A stretch of 64,000 bases of DNA from Planctomycetaceae bacterium (GTDB taxonomy: Bacteria; Planctomycetota; Planctomycetia; Pirellulales; Pirellulaceae), in the NCBI GenBank assembly GCA_005778405.1, contig SXOA01000150.1:1-64000 (forward strand), read 5' to 3'. The position numbers and the translations under genes are program-made. This document shows, piece after piece, positions 10,704 through 63,232 of the stretch (its first letter is position 1; the number at the start of each line of letters is the position of its first letter). The notes under the pieces were generated by a model. It had not been told where the DNA came from and searched no databases. It saw only the letters and a list, made by a program, of their open reading frames with translations.

Positions 10704-11105
10704 CGCAGGCGTGAAAAACCTGCTCGACCGGGCGCGCAAGCGTCTACCAAGAGGCCCGCGGGAGGCGGGCATTCGCTGGATCAGCTGTCGTCCATTGTGA
10801 CTCGTTCACACGGACGGCAGCAGCACTAGAAACATGCCTTGAAAGGCGCACATCCCGCTTACCACCGCTGCCACTAATTGATTTGTCGGCGCTCACGAGC
10901 GACGCGATTGGTTTCGGCCACTCGCTAACTCGCCAGCCAGGCATTTCAAAGTGACGGCGAAGTCTGCTCAAAGCGCACTTCCGCATTTTTCCGTGTGATT
11001 CGTGAACGTCCCGCCCCCCAACGGCGTCTCTTCGTCTTCAACACAGTTGTTTCATCGCGCGCCAACCGCGAGCCCAGTTGGCAAGATGAAAGGAGCCCAG
11101 CTCCA

Positions 11106-12212
11106 ATGTTCCTGTTCAAGCATTTCAAGATCCGCACCCACGAAATGGGCCTCTACTTCCGCGACGGCGAGTTCAAGGGACTGCTCCGCGCCGGCAAGCA
11201 CTGGCTCTTCGACCCGCTCGGCAAGGTCCGTGTTGAAGTCGTATCGCAGCGCGCGCCGTGGCTCGTGCACGAGCAGCTCGACGAAATCGTCAAGTCGGGC
11301 GCTCTGTCGGGCCGCGCCGTCGTCCTGGACCTCAAGGACTACGAGCGGGGCCTGGTCTGGGTCGACGGCCGCTTCAGCCACATTTTGCCGAAGGGTCTGT
11401 TCGCTTACTGGACTGGCCGCCGCGACGTACAGATCGAGATCATCGATGCGCGAATCGTGCGGTTCGAGCACAAGGACGCCAAGGTGATCATGCGGTCGGC
11501 ACAGGCACAGCTTGCGCTCGACATTTGCAACGTCGCCCGACACTGCGTCGGCGCGCTGTTCGTCGATGGCGAGTTCATCGAAGTTCTCGCTCCAGGCCAG
11601 TACGCGTTCTGGAAGGGACTTGTGGACGCCCGCGTCGTCGAGCTCGACCTGCGAGAAACGACCGCGGACGTGAGCGGCCAGGAGCTGATGACTGCCGACA
11701 AGGTGACGCTGCGGATGAACGCCCTGGCGACTTACCGCATCGTCGATGCCAAGAAGGCGGTCTGCGCGACCGACGACGTTCGCCAGGCGCTCTACCGCGA
11801 AACGCAGATGGCTCTGCGGGCCGTGGTCGGCGCGCACGAGCTCGACGCCTTCCTGGCCAACAAGGATGCGGTGGCCCTGGAGATCGAGCAGGCCGTTCGC
11901 CGCCGGGCCGGCGAACTGGGTCTGGAGATCGTGTCGGTCGGCATCCGTGACGTGATCCTGCCGGGCGAGATGAAGGACCTGATGAACAAGGTCACGGAAG
12001 CCAAGAAGGCAGCCGAGGCCAACCTCATCGTCCGCCGCGAGGAAACGGCTGCCATGCGCAGCCAAGCCAACACGGCCAAGTTGCTGGCCGACAACCCGAC
12101 CCTGATGCGCCTCCGAGAGCTGGAGGTTCTGGAAAAGGTCGTCGCCAACGGCAAGCTGAAGGTAGTCCTCGGCGAAAAGGGCCTGGCCGAACGGGTCGTG
12201 AACCTGCTCTAG
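11106..12212 (+). CDS. SPFH/band-7 (slipin/stomatin-like) domain protein
   Basis: RBS aaaggag upstream of ATG 11106. The SPFH-like core is followed by a coiled-coil C-terminus (..KKAAEANLIVRREETAAMRSQANTAKLLADN..). Confidence 0.65.
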   Translation: MFLFKHFKIRTHEMGLYFRDGEFKGLLRAGKHWLFDPLGKVRVEVVSQRAPWLVHEQLDEIVKSGALSGRAVVLDLKDYERGLVWVDGRFSHILPKGLFAYWTGRRDVQIEIIDARIVRFEHKDAKVIMRSAQAQLALDICNVARHCVGALFVDGEFIEVLAPGQYAFWKGLVDARVVELDLRETTADVSGQELMTADKVTLRMNALATYRIVDAKKAVCATDDVRQALYRETQMALRAVVGAHELDAFLANKDAVALEIEQAVRRRAGELGLEIVSVGIRDVILPGEMKDLMNKVTEAKKAAEANLIVRREETAAMRSQANTAKLLADNPTLMRLRELEVLEKVVANGKLKVVLGEKGLAERVVNLL

Positions 12213-12425
12213 CAGCAGTGCCCTGGGATTGAATAGGAAGGCAGTTGGACTGTCGGTCAGGGAGTCGTCACCCAGGTTCTCGAAAGGAGCAATCCTGCCG
12301 CCCTCATGCCGATTTGGCGTGAGGGCGGTTTTTTGATACAAGATGGATGGGCACTTTGTCTTCAGTGCAACTTCCGACGATTCGTTGGGGATGCCCCTAG
12401 ACTCGTTGGCAACCAGCTTTTCTCC

Positions 12426-13331
12426 ATGGATGCAGAACTCTCCCAAGCTGTTGCTGCCATTCGGACGGAGTGGGCTTCCATTCCCACGGTCGGCGTCATC
12501 CTGGGAACGGGCCTCGGCGGCTTGACCAGCGCGATGCACGTGGAAGCGGAGATTCCCTACCATCGCATCCCGTACTTTCCCCGCTCCACCGCCATGGCCC
12601 ACAAGGGAGCCCTTCACTGCGGCGAAATGGCCGGCGTAAAAGTCCTCACCATGGCTGGCCGCTGCCATCTGTATGAAGGCTATTCGGTCGCCGACTTGCG
12701 GCTTCCCATCCGCGTGATGCACACCCTCGGCGTCCGCACGCTCATCATCACCAACGCCGCCGGCGGCTTGAACGCGCGGTTTGAGCCGGGAGACGTGATG
12801 GTGATCGAGGACCATGTGAACTTGATGGGATTTTCCGCGTGCCCGAGCGGGTTGACGGTGGATTTGGCCGGGGCGGCAGGAGACGGAGAGAAGGAGAGAG
12901 GGAGAGACGGGGAGAAGGACAGATTCACTGAATCTTCTCTCTCTGTCTCTCCTTCTCTCTGTCTCTCCATCTCTCCCCAATCCGCCTACGACTCTGCTCT
13001 CGCGGACGCCGCCCTCTCCGCCGCTCGCCACGGCAACTTCCCCTGTCAGCGCGGCGTGTACGTCGGCGTGAAAGGCCCCAACTACGAAACACGGGCTGAA
13101 TATCGGGCATTCCGCCGCTTCGGGGATGTGGTCGGCATGAGTACGATTCCGGAAGTCCTCGCCGCACGGTCCCTCGGAATGCGCGTCCTCGGCCTTTCCA
13201 CCGTCACCAACGTCGCTCGCCCCGATGCCCCGCAAATCGTCACCTCGGACGAAGTCGTGGAAGTCGCCAGCATCGCTCAGCCCAAGCTGCGACAGATCAT
13301 TCTGGGGGTGCTCGGTTTTTTTTCGTGGTGA
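12426..13331 (+). CDS. punA: purine nucleoside phosphorylase (PNP/PunA family) carrying a ~25-aa low-complexity loop insertion
   Basis: Conserved PNP blocks (GVILGTGLGG, HCGEMAGVKVLTMAGRCHLYEG, LIITNAAGGLN, GVKGPNYETRAEYRAFRRFGDVVGMSTIPEV). The start is inferred at the internal Met. Confidence 0.75.
   Translation: MDAELSQAVAAIRTEWASIPTVGVILGTGLGGLTSAMHVEAEIPYHRIPYFPRSTAMAHKGALHCGEMAGVKVLTMAGRCHLYEGYSVADLRLPIRVMHTLGVRTLIITNAAGGLNARFEPGDVMVIEDHVNLMGFSACPSGLTVDLAGAAGDGEKERGRDGEKDRFTESSLSVSPSLCLSISPQSAYDSALADAALSAARHGNFPCQRGVYVGVKGPNYETRAEYRAFRRFGDVVGMSTIPEVLAARSLGMRVLGLSTVTNVARPDAPQIVTSDEVVEVASIAQPKLRQIILGVLGFFSW
12871..12975. repeat. GA-rich run followed by its CT-rich near-complement (imperfect palindrome), in-frame inside the PNP gene
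   Basis: ggagacggagagaaggagagagggagagacgggg ... ctctctgtctctccttctctctgtctctccatctctcc, with a central gattcactgaatc. Confidence 0.5.
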
Positions 13332-13597: not shown

Positions 13598-14584
13598 TTA
13601 TTCCCCTCGCCGGGCACTCGGCGTCGGATAGCCCAGGGTCTTATCCACCACGTTCACCAGCTTCTGGCCGGAGAAATAGCGGCGGAGGTTTTCGCAGATG
13701 AGGTTCGTGGTGTCGTTGGCGCGGCGGCGGGATTGAGCGCCGACGTGGGGAGTGATGATGACGTTGGGGACGTCCCAGAGCGGGCTGGTGACGGGGAGTG
13801 GCTCGACTTCGGTGACGTCAAGTCCCGCGCCGGCGAGGTGGCCCGATTGGAGAGCGGCAATGAGGGCAGGCTCTTTCACGACTTCTCCGCGAGCGACGTT
13901 GACGAGAATGGAGCCGGGCTTCATCCGAGCGAATTCCCGCTCGGCAATCATGTGCCGCGATTGGGCGTTCAAGGGGACACAGAGTATGACCATGTCAGAC
14001 TCTGCCAGCAGCCGGTCGAGCTGATCGGCGGGCCAGATGGCATCGACCAGGCCGCAGGTAATGTCGATTTCGTCGGGAAACATGTCGGTGGCGATGATCC
14101 GCGTCTGGAAAGGTCGCAGCACGTTGGCGATGCGGGTGCCGTTGCCGCCGAGGCCTACGATGCCGACCGTGGAGCCGTGCAGGTCGAGGGTTGGGCGGCG
14201 GATGAATTCCTTCTTCTGGGCCGCGCGGAAAAATGTCGGCAGACCACGAAGCAAGCCAAGTAGAAGGGCCAACGTCTGCTCGGCGACCTGATCGGCGAAG
14301 AGGCCTGAGGCGCTGGTTACGACGATGTCCGATGCGATGACTTCGGGAACCAGGCAATGATCGAGACCCGCAGCGGAGGACTGGATCCATTTCAGCCGCC
14401 CGCCGCGGACGACTTCTGGCCAAGGGACGGAAACCTTGGCGTGGCCGCAGAAGATGTCGGCAGTGGGTAGTTCGGCGGCAATCCGTTCCTGTCCGGCATC
14501 GACGACCTCGGTTCCTGACGGGCAAGCGGCTACGATTTGCTCGTAGTGGCGGGGCTCGAGGGGATAGCAGAGGACGACGCGCAT
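13598..14584 (-). CDS. D-isomer-specific 2-hydroxyacid dehydrogenase family protein (NAD-binding)
   Basis: Rossmann motif GIVGLGGNG and the catalytic region ..VARGEVV...AGLDV...EPLP...P.N.IITPH. Confidence 0.75.
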   Translation of the reverse strand: MRVVLCYPLEPRHYEQIVAACPSGTEVVDAGQERIAAELPTADIFCGHAKVSVPWPEVVRGGRLKWIQSSAAGLDHCLVPEVIASDIVVTSASGLFADQVAEQTLALLLGLLRGLPTFFRAAQKKEFIRRPTLDLHGSTVGIVGLGGNGTRIANVLRPFQTRIIATDMFPDEIDITCGLVDAIWPADQLDRLLAESDMVILCVPLNAQSRHMIAEREFARMKPGSILVNVARGEVVKEPALIAALQSGHLAGAGLDVTEVEPLPVTSPLWDVPNVIITPHVGAQSRRRANDTTNLICENLRRYFSGQKLVNVVDKTLGYPTPSARRGE

Positions 14585-14706: not shown

Positions 14707-15474
14707 ATGAATGATATGTCTGATATTCCGGCACCCGATGCTGACTTCGATAAGAACGTACCCGAGCCTCCTGCCCTGGACCTGCTCGCCCGTTGTGAGC
14801 GGAGGCTGGGGTACATTTTCCACGACAAGCAGATTCTCCGTTCGGCCTTGACGCATGCATCCGGGGCCGAACATCGCCTGGCTTCCAACGAGCGGCTGGA
14901 GTTCCTGGGGGACGCGATCCTGGGCTTCATCGTCTGCGAGATGCTCTTCCAGCAGTTTCCGCAGTATCTGGAAGGGGATTTGACCAAGATCAAATCGGTC
15001 GTCGTCAGCCGGCAGACCTGTGCGAAGATCAGCGAGGCCCTCGGCCTGCAAGAGTTCCTGATTCTCGGCAAGGGAATGACGACGCACCCCACTATCCCGC
15101 CGTCGCTGCTGGCGGACGTGTTTGAATCGCTGGTGGCGGCCATGTATCTGGACGGTGGCGACGCGGCGGTTCGGCCGTTCATCGAAGCCTTCATCGGCCC
15201 GGAAGTGGAGCTCGCGGCAGCCGGGGAACTTGGCGGCAACTACAAATCGCTGCTGCAGCAACTGGCGCAGCGCGAGTTTTCGAACACGCCGGTCTATCAC
15301 CTGGTGGATGAGCGGGGCCCCGACCACAGCAAGATCTTCAAAGTCGCCGCCCAGGTTGGCCCTCGGCAATATCAGCCCGCTTGGGGCCGCAACAAGAAGG
15401 AAGCCGAGCAACGGGCGGCGTGCAACGCGCTGTCCGAAATCAAGGGTGAGCCGCCGCCGTATTTGTCGGAGTGA
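14707..15474 (+). CDS. rnc: ribonuclease III
   Basis: RNase III signature ERLEFLGDAILG plus a C-terminal dsRBD. Confidence 0.85.
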   Translation: MNDMSDIPAPDADFDKNVPEPPALDLLARCERRLGYIFHDKQILRSALTHASGAEHRLASNERLEFLGDAILGFIVCEMLFQQFPQYLEGDLTKIKSVVVSRQTCAKISEALGLQEFLILGKGMTTHPTIPPSLLADVFESLVAAMYLDGGDAAVRPFIEAFIGPEVELAAAGELGGNYKSLLQQLAQREFSNTPVYHLVDERGPDHSKIFKVAAQVGPRQYQPAWGRNKKEAEQRAACNALSEIKGEPPPYLSE

Positions 15475-15559
15475 TTCGGCTTAGACGTTAGCTTAGCCGC
15501 CGCGTCCAAGCGGCGAATCCCCGCGCGGACGCGGGGGCTACGCTCACTTCTATGCTAGA

Positions 15560-21127: not shown

Positions 21128-21973
21128 ATGGCGATTGACGTAATCTGCGCCGCTTGCAAAACCCGCTTTCAGGTGAGCGACAAATTCGCCGGCAAGCAGG
21201 GGCCCTGCCCCAAGTGCAAAGCCATCATCACCGTGCCGTCCAAAAAGGACGAAGTGGTGATTCATGCGCCGGAAGTCTCCGGTCCCAAAGACAGCAAAGG
21301 GATGTTCGTTCTTAAGCCGCTCACCCGCACCGAGGCGCGCCTGTCGCAGTTGAACATCGGGATTATTGTGGGGAGCGTCGTGCTGCTGCTCTTGGTTTCG
21401 CTGGTGCTGCGGATTGCCTATCGCAAAGATTTGCAGATGCCGGCCGCCGCCGCCCAAGGCACGAAGGGAGGGCCCCCGAAAACCAAGGAAGGCACGCCGG
21501 CCGCGACCGACAAGAGTTCCAAAGAGAAAGCTAAGCCAGGCGAGACCGCACCCAAAATGGGCATCACGGTCCCCATTTCTTTGCAAATCATTTTGGCACT
21601 GGGCGCCATCTTGCTCGCCCCGGCAGTTGCCTTTGCCGGTTATACGTTTCTGCGGAACGATGAGCTGGAGCCGTATCGCGGAACGGCCCTTTATATTCGC
21701 CTGCTGATCATCTCCGGGGCCTACCCGATGATGTGGGGCATCTACTGGGCGCTGTTTGGTTATTTCTCGGACAATTTTGAGGGAGGCCCGCCTCTCATGG
21801 CGCTGGCCATGGTCGTGCCCTTGCTGATCCTGGCCGGAGCGTTCGTCGCGCACACGACTTTTGATATCGAGTATGGCACAGCGCTGTTGCACTGTTGCAT
21901 GTATCTGAGCGCCACGGTGTTGCTGCGGCTGATTATCGGATTGCCGCCGCACTGGACGGTTTGGGGCACGTGA
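21128..21973 (+). CDS. membrane protein with an N-terminal MJ0042-type zinc ribbon (CAAC...CPKC) and 4-5 TM helices
   Basis: MAIDVICAACKTRFQV...GPCPKCKAIITVP followed by hydrophobic helices. Confidence 0.45.
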   Translation: MAIDVICAACKTRFQVSDKFAGKQGPCPKCKAIITVPSKKDEVVIHAPEVSGPKDSKGMFVLKPLTRTEARLSQLNIGIIVGSVVLLLLVSLVLRIAYRKDLQMPAAAAQGTKGGPPKTKEGTPAATDKSSKEKAKPGETAPKMGITVPISLQIILALGAILLAPAVAFAGYTFLRNDELEPYRGTALYIRLLIISGAYPMMWGIYWALFGYFSDNFEGGPPLMALAMVVPLLILAGAFVAHTTFDIEYGTALLHCCMYLSATVLLRLIIGLPPHWTVWGT

Positions 21974-23087
21974 CCTGGGTGGCCCATCGTTTTCTGGGCA
22001 CATTGCTCGTCGTCACCCATTCGACAATCCGCCAGTCCAGCCAGCGGCGGTCGGGATCAGCCCCTTTCTTGCTTACAAAGCCCAAATGACCTCCCGTGGG
22101 CACGATAGCCAATCGAGTACTGCTCGAATAATTTGCCGCCTCGAACGGGCGCACGGGGACAATGGGGTCGTCCGCGGCAGCGACCACGATGGTGGGGACG
22201 TCGATTTCCTTGAGGAGCGGCGCGGAACTGGCGCGGCGATAATATTCCTCGGCGGAAGCAAATCCCCCGAGCGGAGCAGTGAACCGCTCGTCAAAGTCGC
22301 GGAGGTGACGGGGCGAAGGATGAAGCGGCGGCGCAATCTCGCGTGACACGCGACCATTGCGGATGACCGCCTCGCGCAAAAGATTGCGCAGGAATTTGCG
22401 GTTGTACCAAATGTTCAAGCCAGTCTCCATGTTTTGGGCGCAGGCAATCAGGTCAATGGGCGGGGCCACGGCCATCGCCCCTGCCAGATTGGCCGGTCGC
22501 TGCCGGCCGAGTTCTCCGAGGAGCTTGAGGACCAGATTGGCCCCCATCGAGAAGCCGACCAGAAACACGGGAGAGTCGGGGCACGATTCGATTACGTGGG
22601 CCAGGGCAACTCCCACGTCTTCGCTGCGCCCCGCATGCACCGGCAACTTTGCCAGCTCCTTGCCCGCGCCGCAGCCGCGCAGGTCCATGCGAAAAACCCG
22701 TACGCCCTTGGCCACCAGCTTCGCCGCTGTCCGCTGCATGTAGGTGGACTGATGGCAGCCGCCGAGGCCGTGGACGAGCAAAGCGACACGGTCGCCGGCT
22801 TGCCAGGCCGAGGGAACAGGAGACAGGGGACAGGGGACAGTCAAACGCTGCCAGTTCGCTGTTTCCTGTCTCTTGTGCCCTGTCTCCTGTTCTCCGTTTC
22901 CTGTCCCCTGTCCCCTGCTTCCTCCTCCCGGCACATCATCGTGCAGCACCAGCCGATCGCCATCCGGCAGCGGCACCAAGTGCTGCTTGCCATTGGCGGC
23001 CCATTTCAAGCCGGGAAGATAGCAGCCCAAAATAGTTTGGGCGTGACCGCCACGAACTAACGGATGCGGGATGAAGGGTGGGAACAT
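21933..23087 (-). CDS. alpha/beta-fold hydrolase (YheT-like) carrying a low-complexity loop insertion
   Basis: HGLGG oxyanion region, GFSMGAN nucleophile elbow, and the later catalytic Asp/His context. Confidence 0.65.
   Translation of the reverse strand: MFPPFIPHPLVRGGHAQTILGCYLPGLKWAANGKQHLVPLPDGDRLVLHDDVPGGGSRGQGTGNGEQETGHKRQETANWQRLTVPCPLSPVPSAWQAGDRVALLVHGLGGCHQSTYMQRTAAKLVAKGVRVFRMDLRGCGAGKELAKLPVHAGRSEDVGVALAHVIESCPDSPVFLVGFSMGANLVLKLLGELGRQRPANLAGAMAVAPPIDLIACAQNMETGLNIWYNRKFLRNLLREAVIRNGRVSREIAPPLHPSPRHLRDFDERFTAPLGGFASAEEYYRRASSAPLLKEIDVPTIVVAAADDPIVPVRPFEAANYSSSTRLAIVPTGGHLGFVSKKGADPDRRWLDWRIVEWVTTSNVPRKRWATQVTCPKPSSAAAIR
22805..22925. repeat. GA-rich / CT-rich inverted-repeat low-complexity element in-frame inside the hydrolase gene
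   Basis: aacaggagacaggggacaggggacag ... gccctgtctcctgtt ... cctgtcccctgtcccctg. The 17-mer caggggacaggggacag recurs as its reverse complement. Confidence 0.5.
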
Positions 23088-31142: not shown

Positions 31143-32498
31143 TCAGGGCCGCGCGGCCGGCAGTGATTCGTCTATTGGCGACCTTCCCCAAAAGAGCAGG
31201 GCCACGCAGCCGACCAGCGGGACCATGCCGGCGAAGAACAGGGCTGAGCCATAGCTGCCGGTCGCTTTGACGGTGTTCCCAACCCATTCCTGCATATAGG
31301 ACGACGCAATCCAGGTGATGCAGCCGAGTGCGCCGGTTACCAGGCCCTGATGTTTTTTGGAAATCTCCTGCGTGAGGGAATAGAACGGAGGAAAGAGCCC
31401 CAGCGACCCGAATCCAATCACGAGAAAGCTGCCGAGGAGCAGCCAGCCCTTCGGCAGTGAGCCGGCAAACATGCTCGCCATCGTCAGTAAGGCGCAAACC
31501 ACGAACGCCAGGCTTCGAGCAGCGTGTGGCGACCAGCCGCGCTTTTGCGCCAGGTGTTTGGAAAGCATGCCAGCGGCAATGCAGCCGACGTCGGCCACCA
31601 GGAAGTACCCCGCCCGAAACCAAGGAATGAAATCTTCCTCATAGCCCCGTCGATCGAGAATGAGCGGCATCCAGGCACGGAAGAATTGCCAGGTCAGGTT
31701 AATCGGGATAACAATGGCCAGCAGCGCCAGGAAGCGGCGAATCGTCGCCATGCCGACCGCGGAATTCCAGTGGATGCGGGAAATCTGATCTGCGGTGCTC
31801 GTCTCCAGCCGCGAAGGCTGTTCCGGCTCGCGCTGCAAGTCTTTGTCGCGGATGAGCAGGAGCCACGGAATGATCCAAAGCATCCCGATGAACCCAATGG
31901 CCTGAAAGGCGAACCGCCAACTGCCGGTTTGCGACGATACGACAAAGTAGATGACAATGGGCGTGAGTACGGCGCCGACGGAAGCGCCACTTTGCAGCAG
32001 GCCATTGCCAAAAGTCCTGTCGCGGGCCGAGAGAATCCGCTGGGTGGTGATCAGGGCGCAGGGCCAGTGCCCCGCTTCGAAGAAGCCGAGCACGATACGG
32101 CAGGTGTAGAGCCCCAGGAAAGCCGTGCGCGAGTTGACGTATTTCGCCTGCGTGGCCAGCTCCGGATCGAGCAGCCAAGGGAAGTACCTGACCAGACTCT
32201 CGCCGAGGGAGTCTCCATAGGCAGTCGCAATGCCAGCGGACGACCATCCGATGAGCACCGCTGGATATAGCCAGCGAATGCTAACGCGGTCGGCTACCAT
32301 CCCAAGGACGATCGCTCCGAGGGCGAAGGCGAGGCCGAACCCCTTTTCCATCTGGCCGTAGTGCGTCTCGTCCAGGTCCAATTCGGTCAGAATGGGTTTA
32401 ATGGATTCGGCCAGCGTCTGCCGGTCCATGTACATCATCATCGTGGCCAGGAAGAGGAGGCCACAGATGGTCCATTTCCAGGCGGGGGGACGGTTCAT
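31143..32498 (-). CDS. MFS transporter
   Basis: 12 predicted TM helices and an MFS signature near the TM2-3 loop. The ORF's upstream extension is created by the REP sequence, so the start is taken at the internal Met. Confidence 0.7.
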   Translation of the reverse strand: MNRPPAWKWTICGLLFLATMMMYMDRQTLAESIKPILTELDLDETHYGQMEKGFGLAFALGAIVLGMVADRVSIRWLYPAVLIGWSSAGIATAYGDSLGESLVRYFPWLLDPELATQAKYVNSRTAFLGLYTCRIVLGFFEAGHWPCALITTQRILSARDRTFGNGLLQSGASVGAVLTPIVIYFVVSSQTGSWRFAFQAIGFIGMLWIIPWLLLIRDKDLQREPEQPSRLETSTADQISRIHWNSAVGMATIRRFLALLAIVIPINLTWQFFRAWMPLILDRRGYEEDFIPWFRAGYFLVADVGCIAAGMLSKHLAQKRGWSPHAARSLAFVVCALLTMASMFAGSLPKGWLLLGSFLVIGFGSLGLFPPFYSLTQEISKKHQGLVTGALGCITWIASSYMQEWVGNTVKATGSYGSALFFAGMVPLVGCVALLFWGRSPIDESLPAARP

Positions 32499-32500
32499 TG

Positions 32501-32546
32501 TCGTCTTTCGCTCCGCGAAAGACATGCCTTTCGCGAAGCGAAAGGC
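32501..32546. repeat. REP-like double hairpin (copy A: ctttcgc-tcc-gcgaaag ... ctttcgc-gaa-gcgaaag)
   Basis: Two adjacent 7-bp-stem palindromes. The same unit recurs at 33241 and 33812. Confidence 0.6.
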
Positions 32547-32576
32547 AACAATGGAGGGCGACAGGCAACCATCACT

Positions 32577-33269
32577 TTATTTTTCCAATCTTCGGTAATA
32601 GAACTCGCCGGTCTTCAGGCCAGCCTTCTGAGGGTTATCCGCAATATAGCTGCGCAAGTAGTCGTATTGTTCCGGGCTGCGAACGAGATGGTCGAACGGT
32701 TCCTGCTGCCAGAACTTTCCCTTCTCGGAAGTCAGTTGATTGATGCGAAATGCCGTGTAGTGGAGCCAAGAGTCGCATTGTTCCTTCATTGCTTCCGCGG
32801 TAGGAAAAGCGGCGAGAAGGTGAACATGATTGGGCATCACGACAAAATCACCCATGCGGTATCGCTGACCGTCGAAGTGCAAGAGGGAATCGGCCACAAT
32901 TCTCGCTAGAATCGCCCGCCTTAACAAACAGCGGCCGTGGCACGTGTCCAAAAACTCTTCACGGCAACGGCGGAAGACCTTCTGAAATTCCGTTCGGTCC
33001 TTCTCGGAGATCTCCTCGATCACGACTGACCAAGGGTTGTCGGAATGGTAGCCACGATGCTGCAGCCATTCCTTCTTCTGGCGGTCCCACCGCGCAATCA
33101 CCTCCCGAGGAATGGAATCCTCGGTTCGAAAGGTAATGAAAACTACTGAGCCTGCTTGTGACCAGTGAGGACGACAGTGCTCGTAGATGAGCAGCTCGCT
33201 TTTTGGATCGAAGAGTTCGCCGAGCATGAGTAGCCCATAGTCGTCTTTCGCTCCGCGAAAGACATGCAT
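32577..33269 (-). mobile_element. REP-associated tyrosine transposase (RAYT; IS200/IS605 TnpA-like HUH Y1 transposase)
   Basis: HUH motif VMPNHVHLL plus a downstream Tyr region (..YIADNP..). The gene is flanked on both sides by REP copies. Confidence 0.7.
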
Positions 33270-33811: not shown

Positions 33812-33855
33812 TCTTTCGCTTCGCGAAAGAACGGCCTTTCGCGGAGCGAAAGGCG
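33812..33855. repeat. REP-like copy C (ctttcgc-ttc-gcgaaag ... ctttcgc-gga-gcgaaag)
   Basis: Same double-hairpin architecture as copy A. Confidence 0.55.
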
Positions 33856-63143: not shown

Positions 63144-63232
63144 GAAATGTCGAAATTCGAATGACGTATGGCGAATGAGGTCGACCTTCTTACCCTAGAA
63201 TTCGTCATTTAGAATTCGAATTTCGACATTTT
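63144..63232. repeat. ~23-bp inverted repeat (gaaatgtcgaaattcgaatgacg / cgtcatttagaattcgaatttcgacattt) with a ~37-nt spacer, immediately upstream of the next gene's start
   Basis: Near-perfect inverted repeat seen in the sequence. It also contains internal ttcgaa palindromes. Confidence 0.5.

Follow-up and report, generated by a model that had tools for sequence, protein, structure and literature searches.

The PNP gene and its hairpin

The stretch of DNA analysed here, which we call the window, comprises 64,000 nucleotides of a Planctomycetaceae bacterium (contig SXOA01000150.1 of assembly GCA_005778405.1), and positions refer to it unless a related locus is named. On its plus strand, at 12426-13331, lies a gene for a protein of 301 aa whose reading frame contains an inverted pair of short tandem-repeat arrays, a structure for which we use the name SSR hairpin. 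The host gene is unambiguously a purine nucleoside phosphorylase (PNP) gene, judging from the matches of its product to PF01048 (Pfam, E=3.7e-44) and to NF006054 (NCBIfam, 286.7 bits), the latter match being interrupted by the insert and falling into two parts. In the homologue alignment the catalytic motifs do not vary. Against the PNP of the related locus L001 we counted 15% amino-acid differences versus 38% divergence at four-fold sites, and the enzyme is clearly under purifying selection. The window protein belongs to a non-canonical PNP type and starts with MDAELSQ at 12426, not with the ATG at 12306; we set the start there because the homologues begin at MDAELS. The upstream ATG is overlapped by a terminator-like hairpin at 12297-12329.

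The full hairpin-forming cassette, with the outer GGCGG/CCGCC closing pairs included, extends over 12872-12986 on the plus strand. It was delimited by folding and by the DNA alignment of the orthologues, in which homology ends after ..GTGGAT.. and resumes at ..TACGAC, so that the cassette is the segment that differs in kind. The left arm (12880-12923) consists of about 5.5 tandem 8-nt purine units of the form GAGAnGGA, found by TRF (unit GAGAAGGA, period 8, 5.5 copies) and by the repeat finder; 41 of its 44 nt are purines and it encodes ..GEKERGRDGEKD.. The spacer between the arrays, placed from the sequence and the fold, occupies 12924-12932, and the palindrome is centred at 12928 (AGATTCA-C-TGAATCT, 12921-12935). 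The right arm (12933-12976) has around five tandem pyrimidine units of 8/16 nt, TCTCTCTGTCTCTCCT, supported by TRF and by the inverted repeats I1-I6. Its array starts at 12933 or 12938 (TRF/repeat finder), with period 8 and period 16, the latter with 95% matches; again 41 of the 44 nt are of one kind, here pyrimidines, and the encoded peptide is ..SSLSVSPSLCLSISP.. In the whole 64 kb, the two arms are the only 40-nt segments with at least 37 purines or pyrimidines.

The sequence-only reading of this DNA had described an extra in-frame PNP loop whose DNA is a homopurine run and then its homopyrimidine near-complement, with the opposite strand open and giving a mirror-image low-complexity peptide, and our analysis agrees with both statements. 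The arms are complementary at 79-89% over 28-39 nt. Regarding its folding as single-stranded DNA, the element reached -35.7 kcal/mol, versus -21.1 +/- 2.65 in dinucleotide shuffles (z=-5.5), and none of the 200 shuffles was as good; with RNA parameters z was -6.5. Each arm also contains mirror repeats of 11-13 nt per half, which are compatible with H-DNA. Cruciform or H-DNA formation had been suggested, and the potential for a hairpin or cruciform is strong in silico. No T-run, as expected of an intrinsic terminator, follows the hairpin, and a search for the G-quadruplex motif (G3+N1-7)x4 gave nothing in this element, in the hydrolase element described below or in the whole window. The Rfam search returned no known RNA family, only sub-gathering matches to eukaryotic microRNA precursor models on both strands. 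An independent Logan assembly (L089) carries the PNP element with identical sequence.

One site, several arm families

We retrieved the DNA of 13 orthologous PNP loci and ran the shuffle test on ten orthologues, the window included. Scanning metagenomes for additional orthologues yielded just a few close relatives. The clade compared consists of Pirellulaceae metagenome-assembled genomes (MAGs) and metagenomes, with PNPs of 65-84% amino-acid identity. A long hairpin encodes the PNP loop in 13 of the 13 orthologous loci with DNA, and the ten clade orthologues tested gave z values from -3.8 to -10 with dinucleotide shuffles. At the protein level, a two-arm peptide signature was present at the same position in 24/24 clade proteins, in distinct peptide types. 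Five PNP loops from outside the clade had z values of about 0, and two outgroup clades showed weak structure only (z -2 to -2.7).

It had been suggested to align PNP orthologues and see whether the loop is lineage-specific. In this comparison the element proved not to be a recent, lineage-specific insertion, because the whole Pirellulaceae clade has a hairpin at the site, in at least four arm families. The same reading had counted a loop shared by relatives but encoded by unrelated DNA as evidence against its proposal, and this is half of what we found: the position of the loop is shared and the DNA differs, yet that DNA always forms a hairpin. Orthologous hairpins of differing DNA point to more than a one-off insertion.

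Separately, the non-canonical PNPs of marine Planctomycetaceae MAGs, which form another clade, have a weaker hairpin in the corresponding loop (L023, 10391-10468; L021, 3672-3749), with the core GGCCCGATG...CATCGGGCC and z values of -2.0 to -2.5. The PNP loop may attract inverted repeats more widely than in this clade.

Regarding the arm families at the PNP site, in the family of the window (T1), shared by L001, L091, L095 and L098, the arms are GA/CT octamers. Family T2 has GGAGTCAGG / CCTGACTCC heptamers (L002, L090, L072 and L076), and T3, found in L094, has GGGGACAGG / CCTGTCCCC heptamers, whose unit is that of the hydrolase element of the window. T4 is non-tandem and consists of a perfect 26-bp inverted repeat, GGTGGGGTAGGCTTCCAGCCTGCCCA (L003, L092, L097 and L078). 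An intermediate form, T5, occurs in L093.

These families do not follow the tree of the gene. In a neighbour-joining tree of the flanking coding DNA, the T1 locus L001 was joined to the T4 pair L003 and L092 with a bootstrap of 100, and another T1 locus, L091, was joined to the pair formed by L094 (T3) and L002 (T2) with a bootstrap of 93. The arm family is thus incongruent with the gene tree, and therefore the PNP cassette has been exchanged or remodelled repeatedly. In an unbootstrapped neighbour-joining tree of the proteins, P0013 (T2) and P0024 (T4) are neighbours, and a YC flank is common to both. We also considered simple vertical drift, with arm types tracking phylogeny, and discarded it for at least the T1/T4 and the T1/T2/T3 splits on the bootstrap values of 100 and 93.

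The left flank of the hairpin is variable in length. Within one 90% cluster, P0004 and P0243 are told apart by a tandem duplication of 12 nt (VDTA to VDTAVDTA) directly upstream of the hairpin and outside the arrays. A 14-aa segment beside the hairpin, FAACPxGLTVDxxG, is missing in P0018, P0019, P0022, P0024 and P0025. The duplication and the deletions co-locate, and this flank looks like an indel hotspot.

Conservation of arms and spacers

Between the window and L001, both of family T1, the left arm is 82% identical, the right arm 93% and the 11-nt spacer 67%, while the flanking four-fold sites of the PNP gene have the 38% divergence given above. The inner 27 nt of the right arm, TCTTCTCTCTCTGTCTCTCCTTCTCTC, show no change among four of the five T1 orthologues (window, L001, L091 and L098), nine four-fold sites included. 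The T4 arms behave in the same way: between L003 and L097, 51 of 53 arm positions are identical, the four-fold sites of the flanks have diverged by 37% and the loops are unalignable. Overall, arm identity was 82-96% versus 62-67% at four-fold sites, with diverged spacers. These comparisons indicate that constraint or continual homogenisation acts on the nucleotides of the arms and spares the spacers.

The loop in the protein

The hairpin codes for residues ~152-184, a surface loop of ~33 aa with acidic, basic and Gly residues followed by Ser, Leu and Pro. The AlphaFold2 (AF2) model of the window PNP had a mean pLDDT of 80 and a pTM of 0.82; the core was confident, and residues 156-181 scored below 50. 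The loop is thus predicted to be disordered, in line with the earlier proposal that the insertion is tolerated in a loop. Against 4m1e, the best solved PNP, residues 3-135 and 188-296 align and the loop between them has 52 aa versus 22 aa. Canonical planctomycete PNPs retain the loop GDNPLIGxNDxxLGPRFPDMS and have no hairpin, whereas the PNP clade studied here had already lost the canonical loop, and the hairpin-encoded peptide stands in its place. In the relatives examined, a canonical PNP paralogue lies immediately upstream of the hairpin-bearing PNP, which is a tandem duplicate; the window contains no such paralogue, and an SPFH-type open reading frame (ORF) is found upstream at 10995-12212 instead. 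The site is permissive, given the loss of the canonical loop and the paralogue in relatives, and the low AF2 pLDDT, the length of 52 versus 22 aa and that paralogue indicate that the loop is dispensable.

The DNA of the arms is also easily accommodated in an ORF. T is nearly absent from one arm and A from the other, and because of this no stop codon is possible in either arm in any frame. Actually, four of the six frames of the PNP element and five of the six of the hydrolase element are stop-free, and every stop lies within the spacers. The coding constraint is limited to a few spacer bases and to the total length, which has to be a multiple of three. Whichever of the three frames is read, a 7-nt unit yields one and the same repeat of 7 aa (GDRGQGT / CPLSPVP), and an 8-nt unit behaves likewise. 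The pyrimidine unit of T2 includes TGA, and in L002 the unit where this TGA would fall in frame reads TGT, which shows that coding selection edits the repeat.

The hydrolase element

A second element of this kind lies at 22806-22912, inside an alpha/beta-fold (YheT-type) hydrolase gene on the minus strand (21933-23087; PF00561, PF12146 and PF12697 in Pfam, PRK10985 in NCBIfam). These coordinates, from TRF, a hairpin scan and the alignment with L096, are those of an insertion of ~108 nt relative to the empty orthologous site; as an inverted pair of arrays the element spans 22806-22925. Read on the plus strand, it has a G-rich heptamer array at 22811-22840 (AGGGGAC x4.3, TRF period 7), a 24-nt spacer and a C-rich array at 22865-22917 (CCTGTCC x7.6, TRF period 7), and it is in frame in the minus-strand gene (..GGGSRGQGTGNGEQETGHKRQETANWQRLTVPCPLSPVPS..). 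The hydrolase instance had previously been called sequence-related to the PNP one. The architecture and the repeat class are indeed common to both, but the units differ, GGGGACA/TGTCCCC heptamers here and GA/CT octamers in the PNP gene, and the spacers are unrelated. The L094 PNP element shares its unit with the hydrolase element, and again the spacers are unrelated.

Orthologues of the hydrolase at 68-81% identity have no insert, and neither does P0251, which belongs to the same 90% cluster as the window hydrolase (..VPKVGGSPAASSTAWQAG..), so that filled and empty sites coexist among close relatives. Since P0251 is empty, the gain in the window is recent, and the element is a recent acquisition of the same class as the PNP element. 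The filled and empty DNA (the latter from L096) could be aligned, and no target-site duplication was seen at the junctions. In the remoter orthologues P0137, P0140 and P0143, this loop holds either RGQGTG tracts encoded by (GGGGACA)n or an insert with two arms.

Two contigs end or change at such elements. The Logan contig L089, from the same organism, stops inside the hydrolase heptamer array (its positions 10831-10859 are window ~22811-22839), and contig L078 (528-590) has the N-terminal half of the PNP and a T4 hairpin, followed by sequence unrelated to PNP. Hairpin repeats appear to break or chimerise short-read assemblies in these two cases.

The repeat population of related loci

We surveyed the repeat context in ~1.4 Mb of fetched related loci (L001-L098) and in the window. 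Heptamer arrays are numerous in the Pirellulales loci and several of them are inverted pairs; examples are AGTGCAAAGTGTAG arrays between divergent genes, GGAAAGC arrays and GGGGTCGGGAGGGGTTTTCGCG inverted repeats. When arrays and palindromes were compared with the gene calls they proved to be intergenic (in L090 and L091, all except the PNP one), and the PNP and hydrolase elements of the window are the intragenic exceptions among the heptamer/octamer arrays. We found 68 hairpins scoring at least 18 in the ~1.4 Mb, 34 with a G-rich and six with a C-rich 5' arm, orthologous duplicates being included in these counts; this polarity is equal on both strands because the elements are palindromes. The PNP and hydrolase elements form part of a lineage-wide Pirellulales population of heptamer/octamer repeat hairpins and palindromes like the repetitive extragenic palindromes (REPs).

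Pure heptamer arrays also occur a few bases 5' of the start of the canonical PNP paralogue (L091 9035-9095, L002 9070-9112, L090 8940-8980 and L095 1251-1280), and at this orthologous site the unit differs by species, for instance (CCCTGAC)x8.7 in L091 and (CCCCTGT)x6 in L002. Inverted repeats like those of T4, GTAGGTyAGGCTTTCCAGCCTGAC, are present in L014 and L074, with a half-site in L090 (160-185). In IMG/VR, (GGGGACA)3 arrays were found in 11 contigs, mostly as a single arm, although L107 forms a hairpin. In L100 and L105, GGGGACA is mixed with GGGGTCA, GGGGATA or GGAGAGA units inside single arrays; therefore, the units of T1, T2 and T3 form a continuum and are able to interconvert within arrays.

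The search for further GA/CT inverted pairs, which had been recommended on the basis of the window, gave no second element in the 64 kb, in the ~1.4 Mb of related loci or in IMG/VR, and the T4 arm had no match among the IMG/VR viral contigs. The GA/CT peptide returned no scorable candidate from an index of 5.8 billion proteins, an approach that is blind to low-complexity inserts; the heptamer peptide gave one match, a spurious 90-aa ORF that consists of two hairpin copies.

Some other palindromes were noted along the way. A AGTGCAAAGTGTAG-type heptamer hairpin lies in the intergenic region between divergent isochorismatase and FGGY-kinase genes (L001 4913-4987; L003/L092 4817-4889; L090 4795-4904; L002 3672-3759; L076 575-649), and it is near-identical in L001 and L003, whose PNP hairpins differ in family. 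The window itself has, within 1.4 kb, five copies of the 17-nt palindrome CTTTCGC-NNN-GCGAAAG, versus 0.03 expected by chance (32505-32544, 33245-33261 and 33813-33852); two pairs of them build larger hairpins, at 32496-32553 and 33813-33852. The copies make up a local REP-like family, and an arm resembling it (GTCGTCTTTCGCTCCGCGAAAG) was seen in L029 (19913-19962). Finally, at 63145-63231, in a stretch without a long ORF, there is a perfect inverted repeat of 18 bp, AAATGTCGAAATTCGAAT, whose halves are 51 nt apart.

Origin and maintenance of the PNP hairpin

We consider it reasonably probable that the PNP element is self-maintaining repeat DNA in a dispensable loop, kept by slippage and intrastrand template switching with occasional swaps of the cassette. 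Replication slippage would expand, contract and homogenise the units within an arm, and intrastrand template switching would re-copy one arm from the other, so that the palindrome stays intact. Now and then, ectopic conversion, insertion or allelic recombination could replace the whole cassette by another hairpin family. Slippage, template switching and exchange together would explain the hairpin in every orthologue examined, the arm families that are off the gene tree and the drifting spacers. In our view the element is above all structural or 'selfish' DNA that maintains itself, and any benefit for the cell is unproven; both the molecular mechanism of maintenance and exchange and the absence of a cellular function are inferences of ours.

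Several observations weigh against this explanation. The slippage and template-switch mechanism is drawn from the pattern and from the literature. Long palindromes are normally prone to deletion, and the ~100-nt palindrome persists in all 24 clade proteins, five of which lost the adjacent 14-aa segment; this counts against pure neutrality. One arm is conserved in sequence, instead of both covarying, which could reflect a sequence-specific binding site or selection on the peptide. The base-pair asymmetry of T1 given below hints at selection at the RNA level. Furthermore, the hydrolase element, although recently gained, has degenerate units, which speaks for the import of an old element and not for growth in situ.

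A less probable explanation, which nonetheless deserves attention, is that the PNP site is a 'hairpin niche', where a stem-loop has been kept at one codon position through the radiation of the clade and unrelated repeat families have been swapped, either because the structure is selected or by hairpin-targeted homing. In the first case a selected RNA or DNA structure would lie within an ORF and could, for instance, serve control by RNase III or make translation pause between the two PNP half-domains. In the second case palindromic repeats would preferentially replace existing palindromes, a mode of repeat propagation that, to our knowledge, has not been described in bacteria.

That the hairpin is a selected cis-acting structure in the ORF, conserved in shape and not in sequence, at the RNA or the DNA level, seems to us rather unlikely. 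It might act as an RNase III target that sets the half-life of the PNP mRNA, or make the ribosome pause between the two halves of the protein. This explanation would account for a strong hairpin in every clade orthologue examined despite the change of family, for a hairpin that is never lost where the neighbouring segment is, and for arms that are better conserved than four-fold sites. In the T1 alignment, 27 G.U and 7 A.C cells were counted on the sense strand, whose consensus energy is -51.7 kcal/mol, versus 10 G.U and 10 A.C in the antisense fold, at -46.6 kcal/mol; this too hints at selection on RNA. Nevertheless, the sense and antisense energies of single sequences are mixed among the orthologues, L094 being strongly opposite to T1, and true compensatory pairs are few (2-3 of 33-40). 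Hairpins of the same kinds occur in intergenic DNA, and one was gained very recently in an unrelated hydrolase, which looks like a repeat population; nor did Rfam provide a family, as the matches were sub-threshold, to eukaryotic microRNA hairpins and on both strands. An RNase III gene is conserved two genes 3' of the PNP gene, but it is outside the PNP operon and a minus-strand gene intervenes.

As a test for selection at the RNA level, the strand asymmetry gave results that disagree between the families. Regarding the neighbourhood, the RNase III gene lies at ~14707-15474 (plus strand), the gene between it and the PNP gene encodes a 2-hydroxyacid dehydrogenase (13598-14584, minus strand), and L089, L090, L091 and L093 share the order PNP/dehydrogenase/RNase III. 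Behind the RNase III stop codon, at 15482-15552, there is an imperfect inverted repeat of 26 nt.

We think it quite unlikely that the element is a non-autonomous mobile element (of the miniature inverted-repeat transposable element (MITE), Rickettsia palindromic element (RPE) or REP type), with its enzyme encoded elsewhere and with a preference for existing hairpins through which it re-invades the site. A small mobile insertion had been the proposal of the sequence-only reading; it is unproven for the PNP gene, where there is neither a second GA/CT copy in the DNA searched nor a signature of terminal repeats and target duplication, and it fares better for the hydrolase, whose insert is absent from the protein of the same 90% cluster and from the orthologues at 68-81% identity. 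Indeed the hydrolase insert is a clean ~108-nt indel between close relatives, and its degenerate units suggest that an old copy was imported. The T4 inverted repeat, in turn, is near-identical across lineages with flanks 37% diverged at four-fold sites, and has related copies or half-sites elsewhere (L090 160-185, L014 and L074). Mobility would also fit the contigs that break or become chimeric at the elements (the end of L089, and L078), and in-frame palindromic insertions are known in Rickettsia (PMC10969869). On the other hand, the hydrolase junctions have no target-site duplication, elements of the same unit (the window hydrolase and the L094 PNP) have unrelated spacers, and unit variants mixed in single arrays are the behaviour of simple repeats and not of copies of a master element. 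No transposase turned up, although no search was aimed at transposases.

It is very improbable that the hairpin is a phase-variable contingency locus, in which the gain or loss of a 7- or 8-nt unit would toggle the PNP or the hydrolase by frameshift. Neither 7 nor 8 is a multiple of three, and such simple repeats do switch genes in other bacteria (PMC4692102); however, all 24 PNP orthologues and the members of the 90% clusters are in frame, the hairpins are identical within the clusters, and the sole length variant is the 12-nt duplication outside the arrays. In addition, slippage is suppressed by the imperfection of the units (65-90% identity), the hosts are free-living planctomycetes of soil or sediment, and the gene encodes a housekeeping-type enzyme.

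An artefact of assembly or amplification, such as an inverted chimera, is hardly conceivable: hairpins and repeats are classic sites of misassembly and two related contigs do end or turn chimeric there, but the sequence is identical in two independent assemblies, the element is in frame with conserved flanks, and homologous hairpins occur in more than ten independent metagenomes and MAGs, a recurrence across independent data sets that in practice refutes it.

Self-maintaining repeat DNA thus remains the explanation that we favour for the PNP element. The wider meaning of these elements is that enzyme genes can be colonised by simple-repeat hairpins, usually seen as clutter between genes, and can in this way acquire surface loops that are new and disordered. 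The persistence of the hairpin together with the turnover of its families offers a way to separate self-maintenance by template switching from selection on nucleic-acid structure within ORFs. There are also practical consequences. Metagenome assemblies appear to break or become chimeric at these elements, spurious mirror-image ORFs and low-complexity 'hypothetical proteins' arise from them, and in the annotation of planctomycete genomes they split the matches of profile hidden Markov models.

Comparison with known repeat systems

RPEs are hairpin-forming repeats put in frame into genes, with filled or empty orthologues (Ogata et al. 2000, reviewed in PMC10969869). The elements of the window resemble them, as well as intragenic MITEs and enterobacterial repetitive intergenic consensus (ERIC) sequences, in being hairpin repeats of ~100-150 nt that lie in frame in a gene for a housekeeping enzyme and encode a peptide at a position compatible with the fold; in the hydrolase, filled and empty orthologues complete the likeness. 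RPEs, however, form dispersed families in which both the consensus and the encoded peptide are conserved, whereas here the arms are tandem arrays of 7-8 nt and the spacers are unrelated. That unrelated arm families succeed one another, as at the PNP site, is not described for RPEs in PMC10969869. A dispersed family with a consensus for the whole element, as in RPEs and MITEs, was not found in the window, the ~1.4 Mb of related loci or IMG/VR. A MITE would further have a target duplication and terminal repeats distinct from its body, and here the whole body is the inverted repeat and no such duplication is present.

Regarding heptamer repeats, Mazel et al. reportedly described in 1990 the heptanucleotides of the cyanobacterial STRR type, CCCCAGT and others. 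Heptamers GGGGA(C/T)T in Nostoc and GGGAATC in Xanthomonas include inverted pairs, lie just upstream of ORFs and occur less often than expected in coding DNA (PMC4692102); TAACTGA repeats are known from Beggiatoaceae and cyanobacteria (PMC4679880), and Rhodopirellula baltica is among the more satellite-rich bacteria (PMC6749651). The elements described here likewise have G-rich 7-nt tandem units of variable sequence, at times in inverted stem-loop pairs. The known repeats are abundant in large GC-rich genomes of free-living bacteria and often lie just 5' of start codons, as do the arrays of L091 and L002 at the neighbouring PNP paralogue. Nevertheless, the known ones are reported to be intergenic, while here an inverted pair forms an in-frame part of an enzyme gene and has persisted at a single site throughout a clade, and the PNP element of the window has a period of 8/16 nt and lacks the G-quadruplex motif.

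REPs are extragenic by definition and linked to RAYT transposases. With them and with bacterial interspersed mosaic elements (BIMEs) we can compare the imperfect multi-copy palindromes found here, as in these genomes both the T4 inverted repeat (GGTAGGCTTCCAGCCTGCCC) and GGGGTCGGGAGGGGTTTTCGCG act like families of this kind. However, both window elements are inside ORFs and not extragenic.

Through template switching, finally, perfect stems can arise and inverted repeats can stay conserved (PMC8794818, PMC5941160), and proteins can be altered (PMC8604942). The inverted repeats attributed to it are like those of the PNP site in that the arms stay complementary and more conserved than neutral sites, the spacer drifts, and coding arms alter the protein; but the stems described have ~5-20 bp, whereas here we have a stem of ~45 bp made of tandem units, with family turnover at one site. 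We know of no description of a hairpin that persists across a clade at one codon position with unrelated arm families swapping. In the element of the window itself, features known separately from these systems are combined, namely a simple-repeat inverted pair that lies in frame within the gene of a housekeeping-type enzyme.

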